From the NCBI GenBank assembly GCA_964386385.1, contig CAYLRN010000007.1, positions 54,374 to 118,373 of the forward strand: DNA of 64,000 bases. The letters are read 5' to 3'. Positions 6-63,853 of the stretch are shown one piece after another. Source of the DNA: an uncultured Lentisphaeraceae bacterium. Its GTDB lineage: Bacteria > Verrucomicrobiota > Kiritimatiellia > RFP12 > UBA1067. Under the pieces are notes generated by a model. That model made no database searches. It saw nothing but the letters and a program-made list of their open reading frames with translations, and had not been told where the DNA came from. Made by a program: the position numbers and the translations under genes. Position 1 is the first letter of the stretch; every line of letters starts with the position of its first letter.

Positions 6-1235
6 ATGTGCTTTCCGTCGTTTGAGGCGCTCGTCGGATGGGTTCGCGGGTCGCTTGCCACGGCGAACGGCTACAACCTCTGCATGACGGCGGACAAGTC
101 GTGGACGGAGCTTGCCCTTCCGTTCGCCGTTCTCATTTCCCTGCTGGCCGCAGTCGCCGTGCGGCGCGGATTCTCTTTGCGAGACCTCGTCTTGCCGTTT
201 CTCTTCTCGCCGTTCCTCTTCTGCGCGACGAAGTACGCGCTTGTCCGGCAGACGGTCCTTCCGCTCATGTACGGCTCGACCGCGCTCCTGGCCCTGGCGA
301 CGGCGCGGCGGCGGGCGTTGGCGCGGCGGGTGGCCGTCCTTTCCTGCATCTTCATCGTCGCCGGATTCGGCCTCACCGTCCCGTGGATGGCATCGGGGCT
401 GTGGGACGGCGATTTCGCGTTCGGACTGAATCCGCGCGGCGTCGTGAGGTCCGCCATGCTTGGGCGCTGCGTCGAACGGGCCGCCGGCGAGACGGACCGG
501 GCGGTGCGCGAAAGGGCGGACGTCCCGCCGGCGTGGCGCGAGACGGTCGGGAAGGGGAGCGTTCTGTTCGTTCCCTACGAGATGGGCCCCGCCATGGCGT
601 CGGACACGAAGTTCAAGACCGTCTGGCTGCCGTCCGTGCAGCTCTATTCCGCCTGCCATCCATATCTCGACGGACTCAACGCCGCCCTTCTGAAAGGCTG
701 CCGGTCGCCGGAGTGGATTGTGTGCGGACTTGACGCGGCGTGGAGCGGACACCTTCTCGACTATCCGCAGTTCTGGGGCGAGGTTCTTCGGAGATACGAA
801 TTCGCCGATGCAGATTCGAAGTTCGCGCTGCTGCGCAGACGCGAGACGCCGCTTCCGCCCGCGCGCCGCGCCCCCGCCGCAAGGACGCTTCGCGTCAAGG
901 CGGGGGAGTGGCTTGACTGCTCCTCTCTCGCCGGGGCGGACGTCGCCATTGGCTGGCCGCGAACGTCCCTTGGCCGCTTCTGCGCGACGTTTCTGCGCAC
1001 GGCCTCGGCGTACGTCGTCGTGCGGTACGACGACGGCGTCGAGGCGCGCATCCGCCTTCTGCCGGAGAACGCCGCCGCCGCGGCGTTTCCGCTTGACATG
1101 GTCGTCTCCGACGCCGCCGACCTTCTGGCGGCGCTGAAGGGAACGCAGCGGCATCGTCCTTCCGCCCTGCGCTTCGAGGCGTCCTCTCCATCGCATTTCG
1201 CGCCGGAGGCGATTGTGCGGCTGATGGGCGAGTGA
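6..1235 (+). CDS. hypothetical membrane protein, probably the C-terminal part of a gene that begins upstream of the window
   Basis: Only ORF in the region with a non-degenerate amino-acid composition (W/Y/F/K/D present). The N-terminal third has several hydrophobic helices. The other frames are Arg/Ala/Pro-rich high-GC artefacts. No start-codon context at position 6. Confidence 0.35.
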   Translation: MCFPSFEALVGWVRGSLATANGYNLCMTADKSWTELALPFAVLISLLAAVAVRRGFSLRDLVLPFLFSPFLFCATKYALVRQTVLPLMYGSTALLALATARRRALARRVAVLSCIFIVAGFGLTVPWMASGLWDGDFAFGLNPRGVVRSAMLGRCVERAAGETDRAVRERADVPPAWRETVGKGSVLFVPYEMGPAMASDTKFKTVWLPSVQLYSACHPYLDGLNAALLKGCRSPEWIVCGLDAAWSGHLLDYPQFWGEVLRRYEFADADSKFALLRRRETPLPPARRAPAARTLRVKAGEWLDCSSLAGADVAIGWPRTSLGRFCATFLRTASAYVVVRYDDGVEARIRLLPENAAAAAFPLDMVVSDAADLLAALKGTQRHRPSALRFEASSPSHFAPEAIVRLMGE

Positions 1236-1278
1236 CCATGCGTCTTTCGGGATGATGCGTGTCATCACGCGCCGCCGC

Positions 1279-1693
1279 GGGCGAACGGCGCGACGGGACG
1301 TCGTGCCCTACCGGGGACGGCCGTTCAATTGCCCTTTCAATCGCGACGGCGCGTGGGGACACGCGCCCTCCCCGTGAAAAGGCATGACGGTAGGGCGCGA
1401 CGTCTCGTCGCGCCGCCGTGGGCGGTTGCTTTCGCTTCGTGGAGTTTTGGAGGCTTGGAGTTCTTCGTCTCCCGATTTCCGAAACTCCCAGTGGCGAAAG
1501 CAACGAGACGAGGGGATTTTTGTCTCACGCGGTGCCGCTGGCGGGACGTCGCGCCCTACCGAATTGGCCCTTCAACCGCCTTTTCCCCCGCAGCGGCGGA
1601 CGAGGACGTCCGCCCTCCCGATGAAAAGGCATGACGGTAGGGCGGGGCTTCCGCCCCGCCGCGTTGGCGGACGCGCAGGAGCGCGTCCCTCCC
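1279..1693. repeat. tandem block (~237-bp period, about 1.7 copies) of composite REP-like units built from three modules: X = GGCGCGACGGGACGTCGCGCCCTACC, Y = GGTAGGGCGCGACGTCTCGTCGCGCC, Z = an 80-nt long hairpin
   Basis: Modules X and Y recur with a 237-bp offset (X near 1290 and 1527; Y near 1375 and 1612). The same Z-X-Y unit recurs at 3089-3346. The palindromes GGCGCGACG-TCT-CGTCGCGCC, GGCGGGGC-TTCC-GCCCCGCC and GGACGCGC-AGGA-GCGCGTCC are read directly from the sequence. Confidence 0.6.
1435..1536 (+). other. long imperfect hairpin (module Z: GTTGCTTTCGC...GCGAAAGCAAC, 11-bp closing stem with a nested GGAGTTT/AAACTCC stem) followed by a short hairpin GAGACGAGGGGATTTTTGTCTC; a structured element or small RNA candidate
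   Basis: Inverted repeats seen directly. A second copy at 3089-3190 keeps the pairing and has compensating changes (GATT to AAAC inside the loop region). Confidence 0.4.
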
Positions 1694-1784
1694 ACAGGGG
1701 AATGATTTTTCGTGTCCGCGCAGATGGTGTTCGCGTCCTTTTGTGCTTACCCCATAGAGCCTCTCCAACCGTCCGCATCCTTCT

Positions 1785-2045
1785 TCGTCCGCACCGTAAT
1801 CTCATTCGTTCGTCCTCTGCGGGAAGTGTTGCGCAATCGTTCGCTACCGCACCGTCGTCCAATCCAATCATTTGATTGCATGCCTACTAGATGCCATTTT
1901 GGGAAGTTCAATGGCAGACTGCAATGATGGAGGCAGGATTCCACCACCCACGGATTTTTATAAGTCCGTGGGTGGTTTTAGTGCGGAGAATGGAGAATGA
2001 GGTCTTCCCTTCGTAAGATTATGATGCGGACGAAATTGCTGGCGT
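1785..2045. mobile_element. MITE-like low-GC element with degenerate terminal inverted repeats (TCGTCCGCACCGTAATCTCAT ... TAAGATTATGATGCGGACGAA)
   Basis: The left arm matches the perfect inverted-repeat element at 2120-2194, and the right arm is a diverged copy. GC content drops sharply inside. No transposase ORF. Confidence 0.35.
1944..1979 (+). terminator. rho-independent terminator-like hairpin CCACCCACGGA-(loop)-TCCGTGGGTGG followed by TTTTA
   Basis: 11-bp perfect stem followed by a T-run, located inside the MITE-like element. No nearby upstream gene, so its function is uncertain. Confidence 0.3.
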
Positions 2046-2119
2046 TGAGGTCGGAGGCTGTTTCTGTTTCATGGTGAAATCGGAGACGCGGAGAAAAGAA
2101 CTCGTTTCGCAGATTGATT

Positions 2120-2194
2120 TCGTCCGCACCGTAATCTCATGAATGCCGCTTCGCCGTCCTCCCTTCTTGTGTCATGAGATTACGGTGCGGACGA
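2120..2194. mobile_element. 75-bp element with perfect 23-bp terminal inverted repeats (TCGTCCGCACCGTAATCTCATGA / TCATGAGATTACGGTGCGGACGA)
   Basis: Perfect inverted repeat read directly; same arm sequence as the element at 1785-2045. Typical miniature inverted-repeat architecture. Confidence 0.4.
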
Positions 2195-2376
2195 ATTGCT
2201 AAACTCTTCAAAATGCCGCCTTGACAGGGCAAAAGAGAAAATGCTACACTAGCCGCGTTTCATGTTCGGAAAGGCTCTGTTCGGGGATGGGGAGCGATTG
2301 CCCGAAAGGGACGTTTTCGCCGTCTGGGGCGGGACTTTTGGGCAAGGCGATTTCAAGATTCAAGGGAAAGAGCAAA

Positions 2377-3078
2377 ATGGGCATTTGGGAAGTCTTTATG
2401 TCCTTGATTTCAAGATGCAGAAAGTCGTTGCAGGCGACTGCTGCCGAGATTGACGGACGGACGTGGTCGTACTCCGTCAGCTCGAGTACGGCGTCCATAA
2501 CTCGCGTCTTGCCGGGCGATGGGGAGGTCAATATACCATCAGAAGTAAATGGATACAAGGTGACGAGAATCGAATCGTCTGCGTTCCGTGGCTGTGGCGG
2601 TCTCAAGTCGGTGACTATCCCTTCGAGCGTGACGAGCATCGACAAGAAGGCGTTTCAAGCCTGTAGCGGCATAAAGTCGTTTTCAGTCGCGCACGACAAT
2701 CCGATATATTCCTCCGCCAACGGGTTGCTTTTGACAAAAGACGGTACGGAGTTGATCGCCGGCGTGAACGGTGACGTGCAAATCCCCTCGGGCGTGACGA
2801 GCATCGGCGAGCGTGCGTTCTACGACTGCATCAGCCTGACGAGCGTGACGATCCCTTCGGACGTGGCGAGCATCGGCGAGTATGCGTTCTACGGCTGCAT
2901 CAGCCTGACGAGCGTGACGATCCTGGGGAATGCGCCGGACATCGCAGACAGCATCCTGATTCCGTCGGACGCCGTGGTGTACGTCATGCGTGGGGCGACA
3001 GGGTGGGATGTGCAGATTCCAGGTACATGGAAGGGATGTCGTATCGAGCATATCTCCCGAGCGGACGCCCTGGGCTGA
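2377..3078 (+). CDS. BspA-type leucine-rich-repeat (LRR_5) protein, short and possibly a truncated fragment
   Basis: Repeated ~23-aa units IPSSVTSIGEYAFYGCISLTSVTIP are typical of BspA-like LRR surface proteins. No signal peptide and only 234 aa (BspA proteins are usually long and secreted). Low GC (about 50%). The ORF starts at 2221, but ATG 2377 has an AAGGGAAAG ribosome-binding site. Confidence 0.5.
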   Translation: MGIWEVFMSLISRCRKSLQATAAEIDGRTWSYSVSSSTASITRVLPGDGEVNIPSEVNGYKVTRIESSAFRGCGGLKSVTIPSSVTSIDKKAFQACSGIKSFSVAHDNPIYSSANGLLLTKDGTELIAGVNGDVQIPSGVTSIGERAFYDCISLTSVTIPSDVASIGEYAFYGCISLTSVTILGNAPDIADSILIPSDAVVYVMRGATGWDVQIPGTWKGCRIEHISRADALG

Positions 3079-3088
3079 CAATGAGTAC

Positions 3089-3346
3089 TGCTTTCGCTGT
3101 GTGGAGTTTTGGAGGCTTGGATCTCTTCGTCTCCCAAACTCCGAAACTCCCGGTGGCGAAAGCAACGGGGCGAGGGGATTTTTGTCTCACGCGCCGCTGC
3201 GGGCGAACGGCGCGACGGGACGTCGCGCCCTACCGAATTGGCCCTTCAACCGCCTTTTCCCCCGCAGCGGCGGACGAGGACGTCCGCCCTCCCGATGAAA
3301 AGGCACGATGGCAGGGCGCGACGTCTCGTCGCGCCGCCGTGGGCGA
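3089..3346. repeat. single composite REP-like unit (Z hairpin, X, Y); a direct repeat of the block at 1279-1693
   Basis: About 90% identity to 1435-1650 over roughly 230 bp, with the module order conserved. Confidence 0.6.
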
Positions 3347-3523
3347 TCATGTGGTTGATGGCGAATGGCCATGCGCCTCCCGATGAGACTGGCATCAGAC
3401 GTTTAACCGCCTTATCTCCCAAAGCATGAGGGCGGACGATGCCGTCCGCCCTCATGGAACTCAATCACTTGACTGCTTAACCGCCTAACAGTTTTTCCAG
3501 ACGTTCGCGCCTGGAAAAACTGT

Positions 3524-4804
3524 CTATTCTGCGCGCTTCGTGACGCGCGACCCGATCAGCGCGTAGAAGAGCACGTAGGCGAAGAGTCCGATCGTGAGCC
3601 AGTAGCTGTTGAGGAAGCCGACCTTGTCCGCAATCATGCCTTGAACGGGAAGCATCAGTCCGCCGACGACCATCGTCATGAAGATGCCGGAGCCCATCGG
3701 CACGTACTTGCCAAGGCCTTCGGCCGCCATGTTGAAGATTCCGCCCCACATCACGGACGTGCAGAGGCCGCCCAGCACCATGGCGCACATCGCAAGCGGG
3801 AACTCCTTGCCGAACACCGACACCATCTTGACCGGCATGTACATCGTCGCAAGCATGAGGCCGATGCCGAGGATTGAGCAGACGGTGATCATCACGCGGG
3901 AGGAGATCTTCGCGCCGAGGGCGCTGCCGGCAAGGCGGCCCAGCATCATGCAGAACCAGTAGGCTCCGCACACGCTGCCGGCCACGACCGGGCCGACGTA
4001 CGCCGGGTTCGCAACGTCGCCGATCTTCTCCGCGTTCATGTAGAGCATGGCCATGTTCGGGATGCCGCTCTCGATCGTGATGTACATGAAAATCGCAAGG
4101 GCTCCGAGCGAGAAGTGGCGGAAGGAAAGCGTCTTGGCGATGTCGCCGAAGACCGACGTGCGGTTCGCGCGCTCCTCGGCCGTCTCAAGGTGCGGTTCGG
4201 GAATTGCCGAGAAGGCGATCACGACGAACGCAATCGCGAAGATCGCCATCGCGATGGCAAGCGCCGGGACGGCGTCGGCCACTTTCGCCTTGGCGACTTC
4301 GCCGCCGACAAGGTAGCCGAGAATCATCGGGGAGAGCGTGGCGCCGATCGAGTTGAGCGAGCAGCCGCACTGGACGAGCTGGTTGCCCTTGTTGCCGCCG
4401 CCGCCGAGCGTGTTCAGAAGCGGGTTCACGACGAGGTTCAGAAGGCACATCGAGAGGCCCGCCACGAACGCGCCCGTGACGTAGACGTTGAACGCGCTGC
4501 CCTTGTTGCAGTAGGCCGAGACCAGCTGGATGCCGACGCCCGCGAAGCCGACGGCCGCCGCGAGGAGCGACGTGAACTTGTAGCCCTTGCGCTTCAGGAT
4601 GAGGCCGCCGGGGATGCCCATGAAGAAGTAGGCGAAGAAGTTCGCGGCGGAGCCCAGCTGCGAGGCGGTGTTCGACGCGCCGAACTGGCTCTTGAGGATC
4701 GGGCCCATCGCGCCGGCGAAGTTCGTCACGAACGCGATCATGAAGAATAGGGCGAAGCACACGCCGATGGCGAGTGCGCTGCCCTTGGATTTGCTGTCAG
4801 ACAT
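3524..4804 (-). CDS. MFS sugar transporter of the FucP/GluP (glucose/galactose or fucose permease) family
   Basis: 426 aa with 12 predicted TM helices and a composition and length typical of FucP-family permeases. Lies directly downstream of galK on the same strand (76-bp gap). ATG has an AAGAAAGG ribosome-binding site. Confidence 0.8.
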   Translation of the reverse strand: MSDSKSKGSALAIGVCFALFFMIAFVTNFAGAMGPILKSQFGASNTASQLGSAANFFAYFFMGIPGGLILKRKGYKFTSLLAAAVGFAGVGIQLVSAYCNKGSAFNVYVTGAFVAGLSMCLLNLVVNPLLNTLGGGGNKGNQLVQCGCSLNSIGATLSPMILGYLVGGEVAKAKVADAVPALAIAMAIFAIAFVVIAFSAIPEPHLETAEERANRTSVFGDIAKTLSFRHFSLGALAIFMYITIESGIPNMAMLYMNAEKIGDVANPAYVGPVVAGSVCGAYWFCMMLGRLAGSALGAKISSRVMITVCSILGIGLMLATMYMPVKMVSVFGKEFPLAMCAMVLGGLCTSVMWGGIFNMAAEGLGKYVPMGSGIFMTMVVGGLMLPVQGMIADKVGFLNSYWLTIGLFAYVLFYALIGSRVTKRAE

Positions 4805-4879: not shown

Positions 4880-6052
4880 TCACACGAGGTGCGCGCCCGC
4901 GCTGGGCTTGATCAGCGCACAGATGGGCTCGTCGCCGTAGACGGTCTTGTAGGCCGCCTTGATCTGCGCGGAGATCTTGTCCGCCGCCTCCGGCTTGACG
5001 AGCAGGCAGCAGCTGCCGCCGAAGCCGCCGCCGGAGAGGCGGGCGCCGAGCACTTCGGGAATCGCCTTGGCGGCGTCGACGATCGTGTCGAGCTCCGCGC
5101 AGGAGTTCTCGAACCAGCTGCGGCTCGACTCGTGCGAATCGAACATGAGCGAGCCGAATGCGGCCAGGTCGCCCTTCGCCAGGAGTTCCGCGCCCATGAG
5201 GACGCGCTCGTCCTCGCCGATCGGGTGGATGGCTCGCTTGGCGGTCGTCTCCGGAAGTCCGCCGCGGTAGAGAATCCACTCAGCGCACGTGACGTCGCGA
5301 AGGTGGGTGACCGGGTGCTTCAAGACGCCGGCGAAGTACTTGGCAGCGTCCTCGCAGGCCTGACGGCGGCTTGCGTAGGCTCCGTCCACGAGCGCGTGTT
5401 TCGCGTTGGACTTGACCATCATGAACGCGACGGACGGGCCGAGGTCCACGTTCTCGAACTGGCAGTGGCGGAAGTCGCTCTTGACGAGCGCTCCCTCCTT
5501 GCCGTAGAGGGACGAGGCCTGGTCGAGGAGGCCGCACGGGCAGCCGGCGAACGTGTGCTCGGACTTCTGGCCGATCTTGGCGAGCGTCGTCCTGTCCTTC
5601 TCGATTCCGTAGACCTTGCAGAGCGCCAGGGCGGTACACATTTCAAGCGCGGCGGACGACGAGAGCCCGGCGCCGAGGGGGATGTTCCCCAGGAACATTC
5701 CCTTCCATCCGTGCTTCGCGGCGGCGGGATTGCCGTCGAAGAGCCAGTTGAACGTGCCGGTGGCATAGTTCTGCCACGTCATCTCCTTGGCCGGCTTCAC
5801 GTCGGCGATGTCGAATTCGACCGTCTCCATCAGGTCGCCGGCCGTCAGCGAACACGAGGCGTCCGCCGTCGGGGCGATGGCGAAGAACGTCCCCTTGTCG
5901 ATGGCCGCCGAGAAGACGTAGCCCTCGTTGTAGTCGGTGTGGTTGCCCAAGACCTCGATGCGGCCGGGTGCGTAGGCGACAGCCGCCGGCTTCATCCCGT
6001 ACTTCTTCTCGAACTTTGCGACCAACTCGTCGTAGACTTCCTGGTTCTGCAT
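4880..6052 (-). CDS. galK: galactokinase
   Basis: GHMP-kinase motifs PGRIEVLGNHTDYNEG and GAGLSSSAALE; C-terminal GGGFGGSCCLL. Start placed at MQNQEVY, which has an AAAGGAG ribosome-binding site (the ORF extends 28 codons further upstream). Confidence 0.9.
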   Translation of the reverse strand: MQNQEVYDELVAKFEKKYGMKPAAVAYAPGRIEVLGNHTDYNEGYVFSAAIDKGTFFAIAPTADASCSLTAGDLMETVEFDIADVKPAKEMTWQNYATGTFNWLFDGNPAAAKHGWKGMFLGNIPLGAGLSSSAALEMCTALALCKVYGIEKDRTTLAKIGQKSEHTFAGCPCGLLDQASSLYGKEGALVKSDFRHCQFENVDLGPSVAFMMVKSNAKHALVDGAYASRRQACEDAAKYFAGVLKHPVTHLRDVTCAEWILYRGGLPETTAKRAIHPIGEDERVLMGAELLAKGDLAAFGSLMFDSHESSRSWFENSCAELDTIVDAAKAIPEVLGARLSGGGFGGSCCLLVKPEAADKISAQIKAAYKTVYGDEPICALIKPSAGAHLV

Positions 6053-6171: not shown

Positions 6172-7719
6172 ATGAAAATTCCAGGCAATCCGCTTTTCAC
6201 GCGCAGGGGCCGCCGTCTCGGAACGGCGGCCGGCTGCGTGGCGCTGGCGTGCTGCTGCGCCGCGACGGCGCAGGGCTCGCAGTCCGTCGAAACGAACGCC
6301 CTCGTGGAGGCCGACGGCGGCGGCCTTTCCTTCGACGCCGGCGCGGACTTCCGCCTCCGGCAGGAGATGATGGACAACATTCCCGGCAACCCCGGCAACC
6401 CCTACGCCGTCAGCACGGCAAGGCGCGGAAAGAACACCAACCAGTTCCGCATCCGCCCCCGCGTCTGGTTCGAGGTCGAGGGCGGCCCCTTCCGCCTCTA
6501 CACCCGCGTTGGCGACGAGTTCCGCGAATACGCCGTCAAGAACGGAAAGAAGCGCAAGGACCGCAGCTACACGTTCCCCGACGAGGTCTATCTCGACAAC
6601 CTCTACCTTGAGGGGAAGGGCCTCACGGCGGAATGGCTGGAGTCGATCGGCGTGGAGTCGTTCGACTTCCGCGCCGGGCGGCAGGACATGATGGAGGTCG
6701 TCGACGGCGGCCTTCACGGGCTCTACGGCCTTGACAGGCTTCTCGGCGACGGCACTCCGCTGGACGGCTCGCGCACGATCTTCACCGACATGGTCCGCGC
6801 CCGCCTCAACTTCAGCGAAGTCCGCCGGCTGGACGCCTTCTTCCTCTACGACAACGGCCGCAACAACCTCCGCTGGGGCAACCGCCAGAGCCGAGGCCGC
6901 GCGATGAACCCGGTAAACATGGCCGACGACAACCAGATGGACGAATGGGGCGGCGGCCTCGTCTATTCCGACGCCGCGTTCGACAAGCACATGCCGTTCG
7001 AGGTCTACACCATCTTCAAGCGCAACGAGGAATACCACGCCACCGTCCTCGGCCGCGACATGCCCGCCAAGGAGCTCACCACCGTCGGCGCGATGGTCAA
7101 GCCCCGCTTCGACGACCACTGGGGCATGACGCTTGAGGGCGCCAAGCAGTTCGGGCGCATCCTCGACGGCAACAAGCAGGCCGGCGGACACATGGGCTAC
7201 CTGGAGGTCGACTACCGCGCCGACTTCCTCAGGGAGTACAAGCCCGTCATCTCCTGGTGCAACACGTACTACTCCGGCGACAGGCATCACGATTCCGACG
7301 GGCACGACAACGACACCGCCTGGGACCCCCTCTGGGCGCGCCACTGCCGCGAAAGCGAAATGCTCGTCTACGGCAACCTCTACGGCAACTGCTACTGGTC
7401 CAACATGCTCTACACGTATCCGAAGTTCACCATGACCTTCGGCCGCCACCACGGACTCTACGCATACTCCGGCCCAATGTTCGCCGTCGTCCAGGACCGC
7501 ATGGGACACGACGACGGCGCCGGGCGCTCCATGTACAAGGGCTGGCTCTCCGCCGCGCGCTACGACTTCCCGATAAAACTCGCCCCGAAGAACGCCGCCG
7601 GATGCGACAGGATCGAGCTCTTCGGACACGTAGTCGCCGAGGTGTTCAACCCCGGCGACTACTTCTCAAGCTCCAAGCCGGCCTATTTCGCCCGCTGGCA
7701 GCTCGACTTCAAGTTCTGA
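6172..7719 (+). CDS. putative outer-membrane beta-barrel (porin/alginate-export-like) protein
   Basis: N-terminal signal peptide, Tyr/Asn/Asp/Gly-rich composition, and a C-terminal aromatic residue (…QLDFKF) typical of outer-membrane beta-barrels. Divergent from galK. Confidence 0.45.
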   Translation: MKIPGNPLFTRRGRRLGTAAGCVALACCCAATAQGSQSVETNALVEADGGGLSFDAGADFRLRQEMMDNIPGNPGNPYAVSTARRGKNTNQFRIRPRVWFEVEGGPFRLYTRVGDEFREYAVKNGKKRKDRSYTFPDEVYLDNLYLEGKGLTAEWLESIGVESFDFRAGRQDMMEVVDGGLHGLYGLDRLLGDGTPLDGSRTIFTDMVRARLNFSEVRRLDAFFLYDNGRNNLRWGNRQSRGRAMNPVNMADDNQMDEWGGGLVYSDAAFDKHMPFEVYTIFKRNEEYHATVLGRDMPAKELTTVGAMVKPRFDDHWGMTLEGAKQFGRILDGNKQAGGHMGYLEVDYRADFLREYKPVISWCNTYYSGDRHHDSDGHDNDTAWDPLWARHCRESEMLVYGNLYGNCYWSNMLYTYPKFTMTFGRHHGLYAYSGPMFAVVQDRMGHDDGAGRSMYKGWLSAARYDFPIKLAPKNAAGCDRIELFGHVVAEVFNPGDYFSSSKPAYFARWQLDFKF

Positions 7720-10069: not shown

Positions 10070-10087
10070 TCAGCCTCCTGGTAGAAT

Positions 10088-10200
10088 GGTTAAGTGGTTA
10101 AGCGGTTAAGTTCGCTGTGGGGCGGGCGAAGATCAGGCGGTCAAGTCGGTAGGGCGCGACGTCTCGTCGCGCCGCCCTGCCGGAACTTGACCGCTTGATT
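10088..10200. repeat. REP-like cluster: tandem TTAAGTGG/TTAAGCGG repeats plus GGTAGGGCGCGACGTCTCGTCGCGCC-GCCCTGCC
   Basis: Seen directly. Same unit family as at 1391, 35196 and 42195. Confidence 0.6.
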
Positions 10201-16019: not shown

Positions 16020-16109
16020 GGCTTGCGGCATTCCCCGCAATGCAAGGCCGTCGCCGCGGCGCTTTTTCTGCGGCGGCGGCGTCTGCGGGAAACGCGAAGA
16101 GAGGAATCA

Positions 16110-17804
16110 GTGCGCGTTGAGGAACTTGAAAATCTGCTGGCGGAACTGATAGACGGCTGGGAGAACGAGGTCGTCGAGTTCAAGATCGGCAACAGGAACA
16201 CTTCGTCCGACGAGGTGGGAAGGTATTTTTCGGCGCTTTCGAACGAGGCCAATCTGCGGGGGATGGAGCGGGCGTGGCTTGTGTTTGGCGTGGACAACAA
16301 GACGAAGTCCGCGCCTGGCTGCGAGTATCCCTGCGACGCCGCTTCGCTGAACAAGTCCGGAGGCCTCAAGCAGCAGATTGTCCAAGGTACAAATCTTGGA
16401 CTGGGCTTTACCGAGGTGCATCTGATTCCAAGGGGAAGCGCAAACGTGATTCTCTTTGAAATACCGCCGGCTCCGCAATCCATGCCCATTGCGTGGAAAG
16501 GACATTTCTACGCAAGGGCGGGTGAAAGCCTGACCGCGCTTGACGTAGGAAGGCTTGATGTCATGCGAAGTCAAGGTGCGGCGCTTGATTGGACGGCTGG
16601 GACGCTGGAAAATGCGACCATGGAGATGCTTGACGAGGAGGCTCTTGCGCTGGCGCGCAGGCAGTTCGCCGAAAAGCACGCCAACGTGGATTCCGGTGAA
16701 GTCAACGAATGGCCTGCGGGGGTCTTTCTGGACAGGCTTAGGCTGATGCGCGGCGGAAAGCTGACACGCGCGGCTCTATTGCTCCTGGGCAGGGCGGAGG
16801 CGGCAGCGGAACTCCTTTCGCCGTATCTGCCGCAAATCGTATGGAAACTGGTCGGGGAGGAAACTGCCAACGACATATTCCATCCGCCGTTTCTGCTGGC
16901 GACAACCCGGCTCTATTCGCGGATTCGCAACGTGCAGGTCCGAGTGCTCCCGGAGAACCGCCTGTTTGCGACCGAAGTCCCAAAGTACAGCCAGAAAAGC
17001 GTATTGGAGGCCTTGAACAACTGCATTGCGCATCAGGACTACTCAAGGGGCGAAAGGATTGTCGTAACGGAATACGTGGACCGTCTTGTGTTTTTGAACG
17101 GCGGAAGGTTCTTCGAGGGGCGGCCGGACGACTATGTCGCCGGAGACCGCACTCCGCGACGCTACAGGAATCCTCTGCTTTCTTCGGCCATGCGCGAACT
17201 CAACATGATTGACACGATGGGCTATGGCATCCATGCCATCTACGTCGGGGAGGCAAGAAGGTATTTTCCGTTGCCCGACTACGAGACAGATGAGACGTCC
17301 GTCAAGATGACAATGTACGGTCATGTCGTCGACGTCGCCTATTCAACGCTTCTCATTGAAAGAGGCGGCGAATTGCGCCTGGACGACGTTCTGCTGCTTG
17401 ACCGAGTGCAGAAAGGACTGCAAATTTCCAAGGACGCGATGCGCCATCTGCGAATGGAAGGCCTGATCGAGGGACGGGCGCCGCATCTTCGCGTTTCGGC
17501 AAAGGTGGCGGCATTGACCGGACGCAAAACGGAATACATGAAGAAAAGAGAGCGGGCAAGCGAGCATTACCACGGTCTGATTCTTGAGTTCATCGGCAAA
17601 TGGCCAAGGTCGTCCCGCGCCGAAATCAATGAGTATCTGATGGATGAAATCGTCGGGGAATTTTCCAAAGAGGAAAAAATGTCCAAAATAACAAACTGGC
17701 TCTCGTATCTGCGAAAGAGTGGACGAATCAGAAATGTCGGGACTGATGCGAATTCCCGGTGGATTCTTGTGGATTCCAATGAGGCTTCAATGTGCCTCCA
17801 ATGA
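16110..17804 (+). CDS. AlbA_2 (Schlafen-like) DNA-binding domain plus HATPase_c_4 ATP-binding protein ('putative transcriptional regulator / RecG-like')
   Basis: N-terminal E-x-x-E-L…VEFK motif and overall architecture of AlbA_2/HATPase_c_4 family proteins. Noticeably lower GC (about 55%) than its flanks. GTG start at 16110 has a GAGAGGAA ribosome-binding site (the ORF extends to 16023, overlapping the upstream gene). Confidence 0.65.
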   Translation: MRVEELENLLAELIDGWENEVVEFKIGNRNTSSDEVGRYFSALSNEANLRGMERAWLVFGVDNKTKSAPGCEYPCDAASLNKSGGLKQQIVQGTNLGLGFTEVHLIPRGSANVILFEIPPAPQSMPIAWKGHFYARAGESLTALDVGRLDVMRSQGAALDWTAGTLENATMEMLDEEALALARRQFAEKHANVDSGEVNEWPAGVFLDRLRLMRGGKLTRAALLLLGRAEAAAELLSPYLPQIVWKLVGEETANDIFHPPFLLATTRLYSRIRNVQVRVLPENRLFATEVPKYSQKSVLEALNNCIAHQDYSRGERIVVTEYVDRLVFLNGGRFFEGRPDDYVAGDRTPRRYRNPLLSSAMRELNMIDTMGYGIHAIYVGEARRYFPLPDYETDETSVKMTMYGHVVDVAYSTLLIERGGELRLDDVLLLDRVQKGLQISKDAMRHLRMEGLIEGRAPHLRVSAKVAALTGRKTEYMKKRERASEHYHGLILEFIGKWPRSSRAEINEYLMDEIVGEFSKEEKMSKITNWLSYLRKSGRIRNVGTDANSRWILVDSNEASMCLQ

Positions 17805-37700: not shown

Positions 37701-37955
37701 GGGAGGGACGCGCTCCCGCGCGTCCGCCGCAAAGACGGCATTCTACGGGAGGGCGCGTGTCCCCAGGCGCCGCCCGGCTTCGGTCGCGCAGGAGCGCGAC
37801 CCTCCCGGCTTGACCACTTGATTTTTCGTGTCCCGCAGGGCTTTGGCGTGTTCAGTGGCAAATCCTGCCCTCGGCGGCGCGACGAGACGTCGCGCCCTGC
37901 CGGTGAAGGCCCGTCAAGTGCAACTTGACCACTTAACGCTTAACCACTTAATCAC
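37701..37955. repeat. REP-like cluster (GGGAGGGACGCGCTCCCGCGCGTCC; GGTCGCGCAGGAGCGCGACCCTCCC; GGCGCGACGAGACGTCGCGCCCTGCC; ACTTAACGCTTAACCACTTAAT repeats)
   Basis: Seen directly; same families as elsewhere in the window. Confidence 0.6.
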
Positions 37956-39180: not shown

Positions 39181-41859
39181 TCAGCGGATGAGGACGAGGA
39201 ATCCGGAGGGGTTCTTGCCGACGACCTTGCCGACGCGCGCGAAGGGGGTCTTGTCGTTCAGGAAGAAGGGCTTCGCGCCGACCTTGTCCCAGAGCGCGGG
39301 CATTCCGTTTTCTCCGCCCAGGCGCACGGGGACGAAATTGCGCACGAGGACTCCGTCCTGCCAGACCTTCATCCCGTAGATCCGCGCGCGCGAGGTCTGC
39401 TTTGCCTCGCCCTTCACGTTCTCGCCGAAGAGGTACATGGAAAGGCCGGTGTCAACTTCGAAGTCGCCCGCGCGGTCCAGCACGGTCTCGCCGTCCACGG
39501 CGATCTGGATGCGGTCCGCCGCGAAGTCCGTCCGCACATGATATTTGCGGGCGGGGTCGACGTAGACGCCCTTTGCGGCCTCGTTCCATCCCATCTCCGC
39601 AGACGGGTCGCCCTTCTTGACGTAGAAGAAGCTCCCGCATCCGTAGCTGAACACGCTGCGCGCGTTGTGCCAGGGGTAGAAACGCATGGGGCCGTTGGCG
39701 GCGTTGTCCCCCTCGCCATCCACGCGTTCCCGGCCAGAGCCGAAGAAGCCGACGTCGCCGCCGACGTCTAGCCACGCCATGTCGAACTCCGCCACCATGC
39801 CGCTGCGGCCGACGATTTCCATGTCCAGCCAATGTCTGCCGTCCGTCTCGAGGAATTCGACGAGATGCGTGGGGCGGAGGGCGGCGACGTCCTTCGCCGG
39901 GCCGATGCAGTGGTCCGGCAGGGGGAGGACGGTGAAGTAGACCTTGTCGCCCACGGCGTCGTAGAGGCCGGCGCGTCCGTTCTTCATGCAGGGGCTGAAG
40001 TCGCGCACGAGTTCGCCGTCCTGCCAGATCTTGAGTTCGTAGACGCGGGAGCGTCCGGCGTAGCGCAGACTCTTGTTTCCGACGTTCGCGCCGAAGAGGT
40101 AGAGGCTGCATCCCGCGTCGACCGGATCAGCCACCTGTTCGGAGACGTACTGCACTCCGTCCAGGGCGAGCGTCTGCGCGTCGGCCATGTACGACGCCTC
40201 GTATTCGTAGTCCCGGTCGACCGACAGCCCGATTCCGTCCGTGGTCTCCGCCGATGCCGTGGGATAGATTTTCGTCATGCCGTATCCGAACCAGAGCGCC
40301 CCGGCGGGCGAATGGATCAGGTACATGCGGTTGTTCGAGTCCGACGCGCAGGCGCCGAGGAAGGTGGTTTCGTTCAGCGAATCGACGTGCGAGAAGAAGT
40401 TGCCGCGAGTGCCGAGTGCGTTCCAGCGCATCTTCGCCGCGGCGGCGGTGCCGGTGCGCGCGCGGACGCCCGTGTCGAGGTACGTGCAGCCGGGCGATTC
40501 AACGTACTCAAGGTAGTAGTCTGGTCTGCCGGAGGCCGTAATCGGCGCGGTGACGAGTTCGCCGCCCTGCGGATAGAAGATGCGCCTGTCGACGGCGTCG
40601 TAGAGCGCGACGCGGCCGTACTTGACGCATGGGAGGAAGTCGCGCACGAGCGCGCCGTCCTGCCAGATCTTGAGAGACCAGAGACGCGCCTTGCTCTTGT
40701 TCAGGGCCTCTTCGCCGACGTGGTTGGCGAAGAGGTAGAGGCTGCGGCCTGTGTCGTAGGACGCGGAGGAGGTGGCGGAGTAGACGCGTCGGCCGTCGAC
40801 GTCCATCGTCTGGCTGCCGGCGTCAAGGGAGGTTTCGACGAGATAGCGCGTTCCCGCGGTGAAGAGTGTGTCGTCCGTCGCGCGGATGAACGTGCCGTAG
40901 CCGATTGCGGGCTTGTTGTCCCAGGCGGAATGCAGCAGGAAGACTCGGTCGTTCACGTCCAGGGACGAGCGGGCGTTGAGGAATGCGTAGTCGCCGTTGA
41001 GGTTGAGCCAGGCCATGTCCGCCCTGCACGACGTGCCGGAGCGTCCGGGCACCTCGACGTCCACGTACGCGCTGCCTGTCGAATCCGCGTACTCGACGAA
41101 ATAGTCCGGCTCGTTGTACGCGGCGTCGTACGCCAGGTCGTCCGTGCCGTCGATGGCGTAGAGGATGGCGTCGGAGACGGCGTCGTGGAGGCCGGCGCGG
41201 CCGTCCTTGAGGCAGGGCCTCAGGTCGCGGACGAGTTCGCCGTCCTGCCAGACCTTGAGGGAGTAGACGCGCGCCCACGCCCTGTTGGTGACGACGCCGT
41301 CCACGTTGTCCGCGAAGAGGTGGAGGTTGAGGCCTGTGTCCGAAAGACCGTCTGCCACGACCGGGCACGGCGCGTTGGTGACGTCCGAGTAGTAGGCGGG
41401 ATAGTAGATGCGGTCTCCCCATTCGGGACGCAGGAGCGCGAACGTCATCGCCGTCTGCGTCTCGTTCGTAGTGAAGAACTCGACGGTCGCGGTGAAGTCG
41501 CGGTCCTTCTCCCACTGGTAGTTCGTCCATTGATTGGGGCGCAGCAGGGTGGCCTCCGAGCCGAAGCCGAAGACCGCATTGCCATTGGCGGTGCTCGAAT
41601 GGATGAACTCCGCGCGGGAGGCGTCGTCGCCGGTCTTCGCGGCGCCGAGAAGGCACATTTCGCCGTTGCGCTCGGCCGTCCACCGGAACTTGACCTGGAC
41701 CTTCGTGTCCGCGCGCCCGACGACGCCGACGTCGACGGCGGAACGTCCATGCGCCTCGACGTACTCAAGCCATGCGTCGGGCGTCTCCGCCCGCGTCATC
41801 CCGGCGCCAAGCAGCGCAAGCCCGCACGCCGCGCAGGCCATCATGTGTCCGTTCGCCAT
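39181..41859 (-). CDS. secreted protein composed of four tandem ~215-aa repeats of unknown function
   Basis: Signal peptide. Each repeat ends with a conserved block, for example RVYSLKVWQDGELVRDLRPCLKDGRAGLHDAV, ARLWSLKIWQDGALVRDFLPCVKYGRVALYDAV, SRVYELKIWQDGELVRDFSPCMKNGRAGLYDAV and ARIYGMKVWQDGVLVRNFVPV. Confidence 0.6.
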   Translation of the reverse strand: MANGHMMACAACGLALLGAGMTRAETPDAWLEYVEAHGRSAVDVGVVGRADTKVQVKFRWTAERNGEMCLLGAAKTGDDASRAEFIHSSTANGNAVFGFGSEATLLRPNQWTNYQWEKDRDFTATVEFFTTNETQTAMTFALLRPEWGDRIYYPAYYSDVTNAPCPVVADGLSDTGLNLHLFADNVDGVVTNRAWARVYSLKVWQDGELVRDLRPCLKDGRAGLHDAVSDAILYAIDGTDDLAYDAAYNEPDYFVEYADSTGSAYVDVEVPGRSGTSCRADMAWLNLNGDYAFLNARSSLDVNDRVFLLHSAWDNKPAIGYGTFIRATDDTLFTAGTRYLVETSLDAGSQTMDVDGRRVYSATSSASYDTGRSLYLFANHVGEEALNKSKARLWSLKIWQDGALVRDFLPCVKYGRVALYDAVDRRIFYPQGGELVTAPITASGRPDYYLEYVESPGCTYLDTGVRARTGTAAAAKMRWNALGTRGNFFSHVDSLNETTFLGACASDSNNRMYLIHSPAGALWFGYGMTKIYPTASAETTDGIGLSVDRDYEYEASYMADAQTLALDGVQYVSEQVADPVDAGCSLYLFGANVGNKSLRYAGRSRVYELKIWQDGELVRDFSPCMKNGRAGLYDAVGDKVYFTVLPLPDHCIGPAKDVAALRPTHLVEFLETDGRHWLDMEIVGRSGMVAEFDMAWLDVGGDVGFFGSGRERVDGEGDNAANGPMRFYPWHNARSVFSYGCGSFFYVKKGDPSAEMGWNEAAKGVYVDPARKYHVRTDFAADRIQIAVDGETVLDRAGDFEVDTGLSMYLFGENVKGEAKQTSRARIYGMKVWQDGVLVRNFVPVRLGGENGMPALWDKVGAKPFFLNDKTPFARVGKVVGKNPSGFLVLIR

Positions 41860-41967
41860 GCCCGTCTCCTTTGACTGTTAGGAAGTCCGTCTGCCAAAAA
41901 TGCAATCCGACATTCACGAGACAATTATATCTGTTTTTTTTTCCCTGTCAATCGGCGGGGCCAAGGA

Positions 41968-42515
41968 GATTAAGTGATTAAGTGGTTAAGTGGTCAAGCG
42001 AGTGGATGACCGGGTGGTCAAGCGGTTAAGTGGATAGATGATCGGATGGTCAAGCGAGTGGGCGGCGGACGCGCGGGAGCGCGTCCCTCCCACGGGGACG
42101 GCCATCCGGTAGGGCGGGGCGTCCCGCCCCGCCGCCGCGGACGAAACGGCGCGACGTCGCAATTCCGTCGCGGAAAAAGGCGGAACAGACGTATTTTCGG
42201 TAGGGCGCGACGTCTCGTCGCGCCGTTTCGCCGATGGCGGCGCGTGAGGACACGCGCCCGCCCGATGCGCAGACGGATGCGGCGGGGCGGGACGCCCCGC
42301 CCTACCAGATTGGCAGTTCAACCGCATTCTGTGGTATAATGGCGCAAGGCATGAAAGACATGACCGCCGGATGCCGGCGGCCATGTGGTTAAGTAGTTAA
42401 GTGATTAAGCAGTTGAGTAGGCAAGGGTTGAGTAGACAAGTGGTCAAGCAGTTAAGCGGGAAGCCTCTGCCCGCGCACTGACGCACTTGACCACTTGACT
42501 GCTTAACCTCTTGAT
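41968..42515. repeat. large REP-like cluster in a divergent intergenic region (TTAAGTGG-type repeats x2 blocks; GGACGCGCGGGAGCGCGTCCCTCCC; GGTAGGGCGGGGCGTCCCGCCCCGCC; GGTAGGGCGCGACGTCTCGTCGCGCC; GCGGGGCGGGACGCCCCGCCCTACC)
   Basis: Seen directly. It also contains a candidate extended -10 promoter (below). Confidence 0.6.
42310..42340 (+). promoter_or_regulatory. candidate promoter TTGGCA-N19-TGgTATAAT upstream of the FGE-domain gene; the transcript would carry TTAAGTRG repeats in its 5' UTR
   Basis: TATAAT at 42335-42340 with an upstream TG. The spacer is long (19 bp), so confidence is low. Confidence 0.3.
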
Positions 42516-48230: not shown

Positions 48231-48872
48231 ATGTTCGAGCCACAGCCATTTGAACGGTCAAAGCACGTCTACCAATGCGACGCTTTCAGCGAACTGCTGA
48301 AGGATGCTGTTCGTTTTTTCCACGGAACGCCGGTCTGCGCATTTCCGCCCGGGGAAAGGTTCGTTGGCGCGGGCGTCTATGCGCTGTACTACATTGGCAA
48401 AACGGGCTTGTATGGAAAGTTTGGGCAGGAAATAAATCGAGAGGAGTATCGTCTGCCCATCTATGTCGGCAAGGCCGAACCGTCTGGCTGGCGGCAGAGC
48501 AGAGTCGCGGTCTCGGAGAAGTCCGGCGGCAAGTTGTTTGAGCGCCTGTCCCAGCACGCGCGGAACGTGAACTGCGCAAGGAATCTTGACTTGGGCGATT
48601 TCGTGTGCCGGCTGATGATTCTTGAGGGCGCTGTCGCGGCCATGATCGCCTCCATAGAGGCGGCGTTGATCGCCATGCATCGTCCGCTATGGAACAGCGT
48701 GATAGACGGCTTCGGCAATCACAATCCCGGCAGGGAGAGGCTTACCGGCAAGATCACGCAGTGGGACGCCTTGCATCCGGGGCGGCCGTGGGTGAAGGAG
48801 ATGTCGGGCGAGGCGCCCGATCCGAAAACGCTGAACAGGCGTGTAAAAGACTATTTGGCCGGAATGCGATGA
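48231..48872 (+). CDS. Eco29kI-family GIY-YIG type II restriction endonuclease
   Basis: 213 aa (R.Eco29kI is 214 aa). GIY-YIG core GVYALYYIGKTGLYGKF…PIYVGKA. Overlaps the downstream MTase by ATGA, as in the Eco29kI system. Low GC (about 52%). Confidence 0.65.
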   Translation: MFEPQPFERSKHVYQCDAFSELLKDAVRFFHGTPVCAFPPGERFVGAGVYALYYIGKTGLYGKFGQEINREEYRLPIYVGKAEPSGWRQSRVAVSEKSGGKLFERLSQHARNVNCARNLDLGDFVCRLMILEGAVAAMIASIEAALIAMHRPLWNSVIDGFGNHNPGRERLTGKITQWDALHPGRPWVKEMSGEAPDPKTLNRRVKDYLAGMR

Positions 48873-49879
48873 GAAGCCTTGAACTGTTCAGCGGTTGCGG
48901 CGGACTGGCGAAAGGCCTTGAGCAGGCGGGTTTTGAGCATTGCGCCTTCGTTGAGTTCAACAGATGGGCGTGCGAGAGCCTGCGCGCGAACTTCGATCCG
49001 TCACTTGTCCATGAAGTCGATGTTCGGGCGTTCGACTTCAAGACCGTGGGAAATGTCGATTTGATTGCGGGAGGGCCGCCTTGTCAGCCATTTTCCCTGG
49101 GCGGACTGTCACGCGCCCACGAGGATGAGCGGGACATGTTTCCGCAGGCCATCAGAGCCGTTAACGAGCTTGCGCCAAAGGGCTTTGTCTTCGAGAACGT
49201 CAAGGGGCTGCTTCGAAAGAGCTTCTCCGATTATTTCGAGTACGTTGTCCTGCGTCTGACGTATCCGCGACAGGCGTCCTCCGCCGGCATGGTCTGGAAG
49301 GAGCATCTGTCCGAATTGCGCAAAATCGATTTCGCGGCGTATGGCGGATTGAAGTACGACATGCAGTATCGGCTGCTCAACGCAGTCGACTATGGGGTGC
49401 CCCAGCGCAGGGAGCGCGTGTTCATCGTCGGAATTCGACAGGACCTTGGACTGAAGTGGGAGTGGCCTGCCAAGGAGTCGAGAATGGCGACGATCGCGGA
49501 CGCCATAGGAAGACTGCCCGATCCGCGGAGCGACCACGGCCTTGACGACCATGTTTTCGTCGATGGCGCTCGCGAATATCCAGGGCATACCGGCAGCGAC
49601 TACAACAAGCCCAGCAAGACGATAAAGGCAGGCGCCCATGGTGTTCCCGGAGGGGAGAACATGATTCGGTTTCCCAATGGACTGCTGCGCTACATGACCG
49701 TCCACGAGGCAAAGGTCATCCAGTCGTTTCCCGACGACTATCGCATTTGCGGTTCGTGGGGCGAGGCATTGCGGCAGATCGGGAATGCCGTCCCCGTCCG
49801 CCTTGCGCGGCTGGTCGGGGAGCGGATGATGCAGACGCTTGGCGGTTTCTCCCACGCCCCCCGCTGCGCGTTTCCGTAA
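48869..49879 (+). CDS. DNA (cytosine-5)-methyltransferase
   Basis: Motif I LFSGCGG, motif IV GGPPCQPFS, motif VI ENV, motif VIII QRRERVFIVG, motif X GNAVPV. Confidence 0.85.
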   Translation: MRSLELFSGCGGLAKGLEQAGFEHCAFVEFNRWACESLRANFDPSLVHEVDVRAFDFKTVGNVDLIAGGPPCQPFSLGGLSRAHEDERDMFPQAIRAVNELAPKGFVFENVKGLLRKSFSDYFEYVVLRLTYPRQASSAGMVWKEHLSELRKIDFAAYGGLKYDMQYRLLNAVDYGVPQRRERVFIVGIRQDLGLKWEWPAKESRMATIADAIGRLPDPRSDHGLDDHVFVDGAREYPGHTGSDYNKPSKTIKAGAHGVPGGENMIRFPNGLLRYMTVHEAKVIQSFPDDYRICGSWGEALRQIGNAVPVRLARLVGERMMQTLGGFSHAPRCAFP

Positions 49880-63539: not shown

Positions 63540-63645
63540 GTGGTTAAGTGGTTAAGCAGTTAAGTGGTTAAGTGATTAAGTAGTCAAGTGGCTCTTCGCT
63601 CTTCCGCCCCGCTCGGGAGGGTCGCGCTCCTGCGCGACCGCCCCC
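63534..63645. repeat. REP-like cluster: 7 tandem TTAAGTGG-type 8-mers followed by GGGAGGGTCGCGCTCCTGCGCGACC
   Basis: Seen directly. Confidence 0.6.
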
Positions 63646-63664: not shown

Positions 63665-63685
63665 GGGGGGGGGGGGGGGCGGGGG
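63665..63685. repeat. homopolymeric G tract (15 G, then C, then 5 G)
   Basis: Counted directly in the sequence. Confidence 0.9.
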
Positions 63686-63853
63686 CATCCCCCCACCCGT
63701 CCGTCGCATCCCCCCGCAAAAAAAAGGGATTTTCCCCGTCATCGCCTGTCATCCTCCCGTCGTTGGCGCATATAGTACATTGGTTGACTTGTTGCACAAC
63801 CGAGGCGCTTGCCCAGGGCGCTTCGGTTTTGTGTTTTTTTTTCGCCCACCCTC

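Follow-up and report, generated by a model that had tools for sequence, protein, structure and literature searches.

REP-type palindromes, an LRR_5 gene segment and a dispersed 27-bp site at a synteny breakpoint of a gut Kiritimatiellae chromosome

Introduction

To our knowledge, nearly all work on repetitive extragenic palindromic sequences (REPs) and on REP doublets forming hairpins (REPINs) has concerned Proteobacteria and Cyanobacteria. Here we describe an array of this type in a 64,000-nt stretch of contig CAYLRN010000007.1 from an uncultured Lentisphaeraceae bacterium ("the window" hereafter), which is split by a segment carrying a gene for a small leucine-rich-repeat (LRR) protein and inverted copies of a site that recurs in rumen and gut metagenomes. 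[quoted passage not shown] Members of the GTAG-tagged REP superfamily often form inverted dimers and are located downstream of genes (PMC3733652), and REPINs have been described in PMC3116915. Bacterial interspersed mosaic elements (BIMEs) have been described as alternating REPs (PMC2817692), and REPs are documented targets of insertion sequences of the IS110 family (PMC12288879). No report of REPs, BIMEs or REPINs from Kiritimatiellota turned up in a limited literature search.

We hold, with moderate confidence in the explanation taken as a whole, that accessory DNA fills positions 1236-3523 of the window, a long region in which the synteny of the chromosome breaks, and that here a horizontally acquired mini-cassette has lodged in an older repeat array whose adjacent periods now form its two flanks.

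The repeat array

The array runs in the order XY(A)-Z-XY(B), is interrupted by the segment 1731-3088, and continues as Z'-XY(C) followed by a partial further unit (Table 1). Each XY unit consists of two inverted tagged palindromes with ~75 nt between them, in which another tagged palindrome is held. The doublet spans ~130 nt, and in units A and C its REPIN-like arms are 27-28 nt long (28 nt in unit A), 93% complementary and 74-75 nt apart. The palindromes take the form CGGTAGG-GCGCGACG-TCT-CGTCGCGC and its complement, and their orientation alternates along the array (1296+, 1388-, 1544+, 1635-, 3218+, 3309-) as in the mosaics known as BIMEs. The central hairpin reads GGCGCGTG/CACGCGCC in unit A and GGCGGACG/CGTCCGCC in units B and C, the pairing being kept in both versions; unit C as a whole is a mosaic with A-like ends and a B-like middle. 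When predicted folds were scored against shuffled sequence, the z-values were -8.45 for unit A (-94.6 kcal/mol), -7.31 for hairpin Z (-43.7 kcal/mol), -4.34 for unit B and -8.37 for unit C.

An initial annotation of this DNA had placed composite repeat units on both sides of an insert, and they are indeed present, with fold z-scores from -4.3 to -8.5: a local gapped alignment of 1427-1669 with 3089-3345 has 222 of 258 columns identical (86%) and one 14-nt indel. The tandem period of 237 bp given there stands as far as the XY units are repeated, but their spacing is 247 nt, and of the three copies (1295-1404, 1542-1651 and 3216-3325) the second and third agree at 95% of positions while the first reaches just 65% in an ungapped comparison. 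Hairpin Z occurs in the window only as Z and Z', and the copies of Z with its linker (1427-1543 and 3089-3205) are 88% identical.

The palindromes themselves are widespread. With stems of 8-9 bp and loops of 3-4 nt (e.g., GGCGCGACG-TCT-CGTCGCGCC and GGACGCGC-AGGA-GCGCGTCC), they recur singly or in groups in at least seven further intergenic regions of the window, at ~10140, 18930, 35190-35300, 37700-37900, 42060-42310, 57540 and 63614, and the palindrome of 1666-1699 is found again at 35271, 37779 and 42064. A hairpin scan of the window recovered 21 perfect 8-4-8 GC hairpins, 17 of which lie in the ~10 kb of intergenic DNA (~16% of the window). All of these 17 have GGTAG or GGGAG immediately 5' on one strand as an unpaired tag, and the four hairpins within genes are untagged. 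Matches to the tag number 16 in the 64 kb and were also seen in loci of related metagenome-assembled genomes (MAGs; L010, L012, L014, L045, L202 and L205), two of which (L012 and L205) have exact matches of 26-27 nt. The initial annotation had reasoned that a dense scatter of the repeat would make bracketing by two copies expected by chance; the palindromes are common in intergenic DNA, so that to find a gene between them is no surprise, but the long Z+XY composite was found at this locus only within the 64 kb. The same genome segment, assembled independently from short reads (L001, a Logan contig of SRR10277277), carries a GGTAG palindrome at both termini, and contigs ending in such palindromes would account for the poor assembly and fragmentation of the genomes in this lineage.

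Because tagged, extragenic, multi-copy palindromes match the definition of the GTAG-tagged REP superfamily, we classify the structured repeat, on its sequence features, as a new family of the REP/REPIN/BIME type, i.e., a known kind of repeat in a new phylum. It shares with the described families GC-rich palindromes of 20-30 bp, an unpaired GTAG-like tag, an extragenic position, multiple copies, inverted doublets that fold as long hairpins, clustering into alternating mosaics and presence in related genomes. It differs from them in a second tag, GGGAG, which is as common as GGTAG and departs from the consensus, and in the unrelated 80-nt hairpin Z that alternates with the doublets. A gene for a REP-associated tyrosine transposase (RAYT) was not seen among the 26 window ORFs (open reading frames) scanned, and an Rfam search returned nothing over threshold (two chance-level matches, E ~0.55). 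By analogy with these families, the palindromes would be non-autonomous DNA spread probably by a transposase encoded elsewhere in the genome together with local recombination, and when transcribed they may act as 3' hairpins.

The interrupting segment and its gene

The segment has a GC content of 0.511 in its non-coding part (1731-2376) and 0.571 in its ORF, against 0.65 for the window, in agreement with the fall in GC pointed out in the initial annotation. No match to 1700-3100 was found in plasmid or phage collections, and the loci of relatives contain no DNA similar to 1731-3088.

The ORF was rightly described as BspA-like and as lacking a signal peptide. Its Pfam match to LRR_5 scores 96.9 bits against a cut-off of 27.7, and the protein is identical to NCBI protein P0121 (from a 134-kb contig), the next-best homologues being 45-56% identical over part of their length; an exact look-up of the protein in the contig index gave no record. 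The suggestion that the ORF is a gene fragment fails, as both ends of short full-length homologues are there, a 'TWSYSV' strand at the N-terminus and a 'GNAP...VYV...GATGW' cap at the C-terminus. Judging from its sequence, the gene encodes a complete small LRR_5 protein without a recognisable export signal: where the homologues have the hydrophobic stretch of their signal peptides, the protein has the degenerate stretch MGIWEVFMSLISRCRKSLQAT in the alignment with them. It thus appears to have lost, or never to have had, a signal peptide, and its present function is therefore doubtful. The LRR_5 repeats, the 'TWxY' strand and the cap are those of the BspA-type family, from whose members it differs in being just 233 aa long and in lacking a signal peptide, an anchoring domain and a close homologue. 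When 40 window genes were ranked by GC content at third codon positions (GC3), the LRR gene came third from the bottom (0.72 against a median of 0.88), below it only a Schlafen/AlbA-type ATPase gene and a C5 DNA methylase gene, both of them typical accessory genes.

The promoter-like sequence listed in Table 1 is the sole match of its kind in 1200-3600 and precedes the start codon of the LRR gene by 127 nt. Further upstream, a hairpin looks like an intrinsic terminator of the plus strand; the terminator scan passed over it because its loop exceeds 8 nt, and it was recognised by reading the sequence and from a self-match at 1943-1976. The putative cassette would thus consist of four sites of 22-27 bp arranged as two convergent pairs, a terminator-like hairpin, a promoter of its own and a small LRR_5 gene.

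Insertion history of the locus

For the comparison of gene order, 80 loci around orthologues of the major facilitator superfamily (MFS) transporter gene that borders the region (3524-4804, minus strand) were used. The closest proteins, at 81-92% identity, come from uncultured MAGs of gut and rumen that bear the labels Lentisphaeraceae, Kiritimatiellae or Kiritimatiellaeota. Neither the ORF upstream of the array (6-1235) nor the LRR gene had a tblastn match in any of the 80 loci, and what follows downstream of the MFS gene changes from lineage to lineage, e.g., a gene for a large secreted protein in L002 and L003 and an aldose-epimerase-like gene in L004 and L005. The locus is a synteny breakpoint in all relatives fetched.

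The most likely history is that a mini-cassette of horizontal origin inserted into, or entered by recombination, a REP-type array that was already in place. Its site pairs represent, at this locus, a repeat that is dispersed among Kiritimatiellae of rumen and gut. The flanking direct repeats would then be two neighbouring periods of one older array rather than duplications made by the insertion, because the alternation of units is regular and is interrupted once, exactly at a unit boundary. An unbroken allele of the array would show the junction ...CCCTCCCACAGGGGAATGATTTTTCGTGTCC / TGCTTTCGCTGTGTGGAG... Of the cassette between repeat copies that had been proposed from the outset, what stands is a lineage-specific segment of atypical composition with an accessory LRR gene, interrupting the array; the bracketing pair is not special. 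Foreign DNA lodged within a REP cluster is also what insertions of the IS110 family produce (e.g., ISPpu9), but no transposase gene is present in or near the insert here, and no integrase, transposase or recombinase domain was detected among the 26 window ORFs scanned with Pfam.

Several observations weigh against this explanation. The empty site to be looked for in relatives was not found among the 80 MFS loci, because synteny breaks here in all of them. The flanking copies are only 86% identical, which neither requires nor excludes a common origin. Other promoter-type intergenic stretches of the window have GC contents of 0.48-0.51, so the 646-nt non-coding part of the segment is normal for promoter DNA and not exceptional, and only the codon composition of the LRR gene argues for a foreign origin. 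No RAYT (Y1) or other transposase was among the 26 ORFs scanned. Finally, the source is a metagenome-assembled genome, in which pieces can be joined at repeats.

An unlikely alternative is an integration of the Campbell type, in which circular DNA with one copy of Z+XY recombined with a resident copy and thereby created the flanking repeats; this corresponds to the recombination between repeat copies named in the initial annotation. The flanking copies are indeed direct, ~245-257 bp long and 86% identical, the composite exists nowhere else in the 64 kb, and the A-like and B-like parts of unit C are as expected of a recombinant. However, the donor would have to carry the lineage-specific repeat, yet its cargo looks foreign in composition; the strict XY-Z-XY-Z-XY alternation needs no duplication, and a divergence of 14%, with a 14-nt indel, is high if a single event produced both copies. 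We regard it as equally improbable that no insertion took place, the LRR gene being resident and REP-type units having accumulated or been duplicated on either side of it, as around many genes. Palindromes fill many intergenic regions, a related LRR_5 gene on L205 is likewise flanked by tagged palindromes, and the low GC upstream of the gene is that of the promoter regions of the window; against a resident gene stand its outlying GC3, the absence of a close homologue (45-56% identity at best), the lack of synteny in all relatives and the confinement of Z to these two places in the window. Least probable by some distance is an assembly artefact, in which a 1.36-kb piece that truly belongs at another place in this genome, or in a strain assembled together with it, was joined via the repeats: the independent short-read assembly does break within unit C (a 6.9-kb contig found by exact look-up of the MFS protein) and no contig of the collection has a gene for exactly this LRR product, but both junctions fall at sensible unit boundaries, and even a misplaced piece, flanked as it is by the same lineage-specific repeats, would belong to the lineage.

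The LRR insertion, most likely lodged in an older array, is on its own an ordinary small accessory island; the locus is overall largely ordinary, with one novel lead, namely the inverted-repeat arms of the segment.

Inverted-repeat arms and the 27-bp site

The arm is a 22-nt string, TCGTCCGCACCGTAATCTCAT, with three exact copies in the window (~1785+, 2120+ and 2174-) where none is expected by chance, and a fourth, degenerate copy that matches at 18 of 22 positions. The two inverted-repeat elements sharing this arm were correctly recognised at the start, except that the perfect arms of one pair measure 24 nt instead of 23; this second pair is predicted to fold at -44.5 kcal/mol (z = -10.45). 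We consider both pairs to be local, probably non-autonomous copies of a lineage-wide element.

In both pairs, terminal inverted repeats surround a short non-coding interior, as in MITEs. Like Correia elements, they have inverted arms of 22-26 bp that enclose 30-200 bp next to genes, some copies of the site abut promoters, and long RNA hairpins would form upon transcription. Unlike MITEs, the interiors are unrelated and match nothing in ~200 loci, only the 22-27-nt arm recurring; copies also occur in frame within genes; and the majority of the metagenome copies stand alone as 27-bp sites, not in pairs. A reading of the flanks revealed no target-site duplication at either pair (...CATCCTTC and ATTGCTGG around the first, ...GATTGAT and TTGCTAAA around the second). 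We therefore rejected a classical MITE, which has a target-site duplication and a shared interior; what is left of the MITE-like label is the inverted arms of a multi-copy family.

Other candidates fared no better. An inverton is contradicted by a promoter-like site outside both pairs, by the distance of just 29 nt within one pair, by the same orientation of the orthologous pairs in L109, L148 and L172, and by the absence of a recombinase domain from the ORFs scanned. An integron cassette with attC or an Xer-dif module was dismissed on reading the 27-nt core, which lacks dyad symmetry, and a DNA uptake sequence because ~4 copies per 64 kb are too rare. The sequence fits neither a tRNA-derived attachment (att) site nor a sigma54 or extracytoplasmic-function (ECF) promoter. 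A shufflon-like or signal-peptide-swapping role, considered because the site occurs in a porin-like signal peptide, was dropped in view of a stop codon between the window sites and the LRR ORF, and a carB pseudogene fragment in view of the restriction of the carB match to 22-30 nt. The idea that a decayed mobile element delivered the LRR gene is not borne out, since the three closest LRR loci fetched have no arms.

The first match outside the window was a stretch of 22-30 nt within carB of a related MAG (L013), where it encodes part of the peptide GENEITVRTKR. The search for further copies of the arm, which the initial annotation had proposed, was productive: the exact 22-mer is carried by at least 120 metagenome contigs, mostly from rumen and gut samples, and at least 46 non-redundant contexts have unrelated flanks on both sides, defining a conserved core of 27 nt, GAT-TTCGTCCGCACCGTAATCTCAT-TT. 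No dyad symmetry was found in this core, which argues against core sites of tyrosine or serine recombinases; no arm copy was found in viral contigs, and a literature text search found the arm string in no paper, in either orientation. Among the matches listed, 55 of 61 context classes lie outside long ORFs, while in carB of L013 and L149 the site is in frame. Convergent pairs with a 49-nt spacer that resemble the second pair of the window are present in L109, L148 and L172, and direct arrays of the form site-gene-site-gene in L089, L161, L185, L088 and L142.

In further contexts, unrelated accessory genes have the site directly ahead of their sigma70-like promoters. By their N-termini, which we inspected by eye, we take the genes next to the site to encode DUF262-like, Phd-like antitoxin, nucleotidyltransferase-like and RHS-like proteins and several membrane proteins, and one gene downstream of a site presumably an ATPase of the AAA_14 family. 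Of 57 non-redundant contexts among the matches listed, 9 have a promoter-like sequence downstream on the strand of the site, against 1-3 of 57 in controls, so the promoter association is real but partial; the bias of site orientation relative to downstream genes is weak in the same set of listed matches (7/37 vs 2/29).

As a separate observation, the gene for a porin-like protein of ~300 aa with the C-terminus ...SVQYQF (L083, positions 27-926; L188; L192; L097) has the exact 22-mer within the region that encodes its signal peptide (MNNNINRK-FVRTVIS- at the site), and the surrounding codons differ between orthologues.

A dispersed unit and its protein family

The commonest context of the site, among the matches listed, is a dispersed unit of ~1.1-1.2 kb. 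It begins with the site, followed by 8 nt, TTGCCT, 17 nt, TGgTATGAT, ~7 nt, ATG and an ORF of 315-390 aa, and two more copies of the site, in opposite orientation, lie in the last third of this ORF. The spacing of the internal copies is always 2 (mod 3) nt (185, 236, 245, 263, 266 or 272), and the same DNA is therefore read as (K/R)DYGADE at one copy and as NEITxRTK at the other. The first internal copy is an island of conservation (0.87) in a hypervariable, indel-rich linker, and both peptide motifs are kept in some distant members of the family. Together, the reading in two frames, the conservation island and the persistence of the motifs argue for selection on DNA or RNA rather than on protein.

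Homology between units starts ~5 nt 5' of the upstream site, and unrelated sequence surrounds units that share 85-94% identity. At the 3' side, where the site copies are within the ORF, homology runs at least ~30 nt past them and ends near the stop codon; a motif ...GGTGGCATAGGCGAAG recurs there, with no terminal inverted repeat. In L100 (~260-350) and L125, just 3' of the ~340-aa ORF, we also noticed one to three tandem copies of a ~30-nt motif (AAAAAGGTGGCATAGGCGAAGTCAAGTGC) that overlap the stop codon. The ~340-aa protein family comprises at least 575 clusters at 50% identity, none of them annotated; no significant match in Pfam or PHROG and no fold match was obtained, and no copy of the ORF is present in the window.

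These data tentatively point to a repeat-plus-protein system of rumen and gut Kiritimatiellae that has not been described, in which the 27-bp core would be the cis element of the ~340-aa family; we put this forward as a possibility held with clearly less confidence than the insertion history above. By analogy, the system would follow the logic of REPIN and RAYT, or of MITE and insertion sequence, but with an unrelated, all-helical protein, and the two pairs of the window would be its non-autonomous members. As with a RAYT and its own REPs, inverted copies of a repeat bracket a protein gene, and this repeat is also scattered over the genome, singly and as doublets that form hairpins. The comparison breaks down in that the protein has no Y1/HUH domain, Pfam match or fold match, the site is non-palindromic, two of the three sites are inside the ORF, and the unit occurs in many genomic contexts. 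In the proposed system, the gene would be bounded by the site at its 5' edge and contain internal inverted copies in two frames (RDYGADE and NEITVRTK), and solitary or paired copies would have reached dozens of places between genes as well as, in frame, carB and the porin-like signal peptide.

The main alternative to such mobility, which we judge somewhat less probable still, is that the sites are operators: the ~340-aa protein, encoded elsewhere, would bind them and in this window control the putative LRR promoter. The site precedes the -35-like hexamer of the dispersed unit by 8 nt and the sigma70-like promoters of several unrelated genes by 8-14 nt, the only promoter-like match near the LRR gene follows the window sites at a distance of 26-100 nt, and the excess of promoter-like sequences over controls points the same way. 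On the other hand, a promoter is absent from 48 of the 57 contexts among the matches listed, the 22 nt show no dyad symmetry and a conservation far above that of typical operators, the gene-orientation bias is weak, and neither a DNA-binding domain nor a fold match could be recognised for the protein. The operator role is compatible with the repeat-plus-protein system and with the proposed insertion into the array.

Other features of the window

Table 1. Features of the region around the interrupted array (window positions)
Feature	Positions	Strand	Remarks
Unit A, REPIN-like doublet	1265-1425		inverted GGTAG-tagged palindrome arms 1286-1313 and 1388-1415
Central GGGAG-tagged hairpin	1348-1367		within unit A
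Hairpin Z, imperfect	1425-1504		80 nt; followed by linker GAGACGAGGGGATTTTTGTCTCACGCG
Unit B, REPIN-like doublet	1519-1700		central hairpin 1595-1614, right palindrome 1641-1660
Extra GGGAG-tagged palindrome	1669-1688		in unit B, beyond the doublet
Lower-GC segment splitting the array	1731-3088	+	1.36 kb; between unit B and Z'
First convergent site pair	1784-2034		exact arm 1784-1805 (+), degenerate arm 2013-2034 (-); 207 nt of unique sequence between
Terminator-like hairpin	1944-1979	+	11-bp stem 1944-1954/1965-1975, 10-nt loop, then TTTT
Second convergent site pair	2119-2195		perfect 24-nt arms 2119-2142 and 2172-2195; 29-nt spacer
Sigma70-like promoter	2221-2250	+	TTGACA, 18 nt, TACACT, TG upstream; 10 of 12 positions match
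BspA-type LRR_5 gene	2377-3078	+	233 aa; PF13306, E = 1.1e-27
Hairpin Z' (second copy of Z)	3087-3168		-39.9 kcal/mol, z = -6.0; 88% identical to Z
Unit C, REPIN-like doublet	3187-3346		arms 3208-3234 and 3310-3336, 93% complementary
Partial further unit	3402-3453		spacer-like stretch TTTAACCGCC... and palindrome 3430-3451
16-nt inverted repeat	3488-3523		directly after the MFS gene stop codon; from repeat finding

The inverted repeat that ends the region is, by its position, probably the terminator of the MFS gene. The chromosomal neighbours are ordinary (galactokinase, esterase, nitroreductase, xanthine/uracil permease and pseudopilins), and the window as a whole has a GC content of ~65%. 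Its lowest GC3 values belong to the genes at 16023-17804 and 48689-49879 (0.66 and 0.68), one coding for a protein with Schlafen/AlbA_2 and HATPase_c_4 domains and one for a C5 cytosine DNA methylase; probably both are defence-type genes gained by horizontal transfer.

Tandem arrays of 8-bp units (GTTAAGTG, ATTAAGTG or GTCAAGCG; 3-9 copies) are intergenic and usually adjoin REP clusters (10081-10119, 35123-35169, 41961-42057, 42380-42457 and 63527-63597). At 10081-10119 the array shortly precedes the ribosome-binding site of the nitroreductase gene. At 41961-42007 it shortly precedes, in the direction of the minus strand, a perfect TTGACA-17-TATAAT promoter of the gene at 39181-41859 (minus strand). 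The latter is an 892-aa ORF with no Pfam match and internally repeated modules of ~195-220 aa, whose DNA has a period of 585-663 nt and 68-84% identity across the repeated stretches. A 32-nt tandem repeat (AAGTGCAGTAGAAGACGGATTTTAACCATGCA, 2.3 copies, 37588-37662) is located downstream of two tRNA genes and adjoins REP palindromes. In the L013 copy of carB, the gene for the large subunit of carbamoyl-phosphate synthase (MAG UBA3624), a tagged REP-type palindrome, AGGGTCGCGCGTCCCGCGCGACC...CCCCTACC, and a 21-nt tandem repeat that encodes repeated SVPLVAS both lie in frame, apparently in linkers (positions 5905-5975 and 6213-6290 of the locus). Intergenic homopolymer runs at 63668-63690 (~15 G, then CGGGGG), 63720-63727 (A8) and 37510-37522 (T12) could be slippage-prone tracts or assembly noise.

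Implications

A well-formed REP-type family in uncultured gut Kiritimatiellae widens the known range of REPs and REPINs. The 27-bp site is the more consequential part of the locus, being conserved at the level of DNA both in non-coding regions and in two frames of an ORF. If the ~340-aa protein moves or binds this site, it would represent a new class of repeat-associated protein; and if that is true, the system would offer a handle on the organisation of accessory genes in this phylum, as the neighbours of the site include LRR, toxin-antitoxin, DUF262-like and RHS-like genes.

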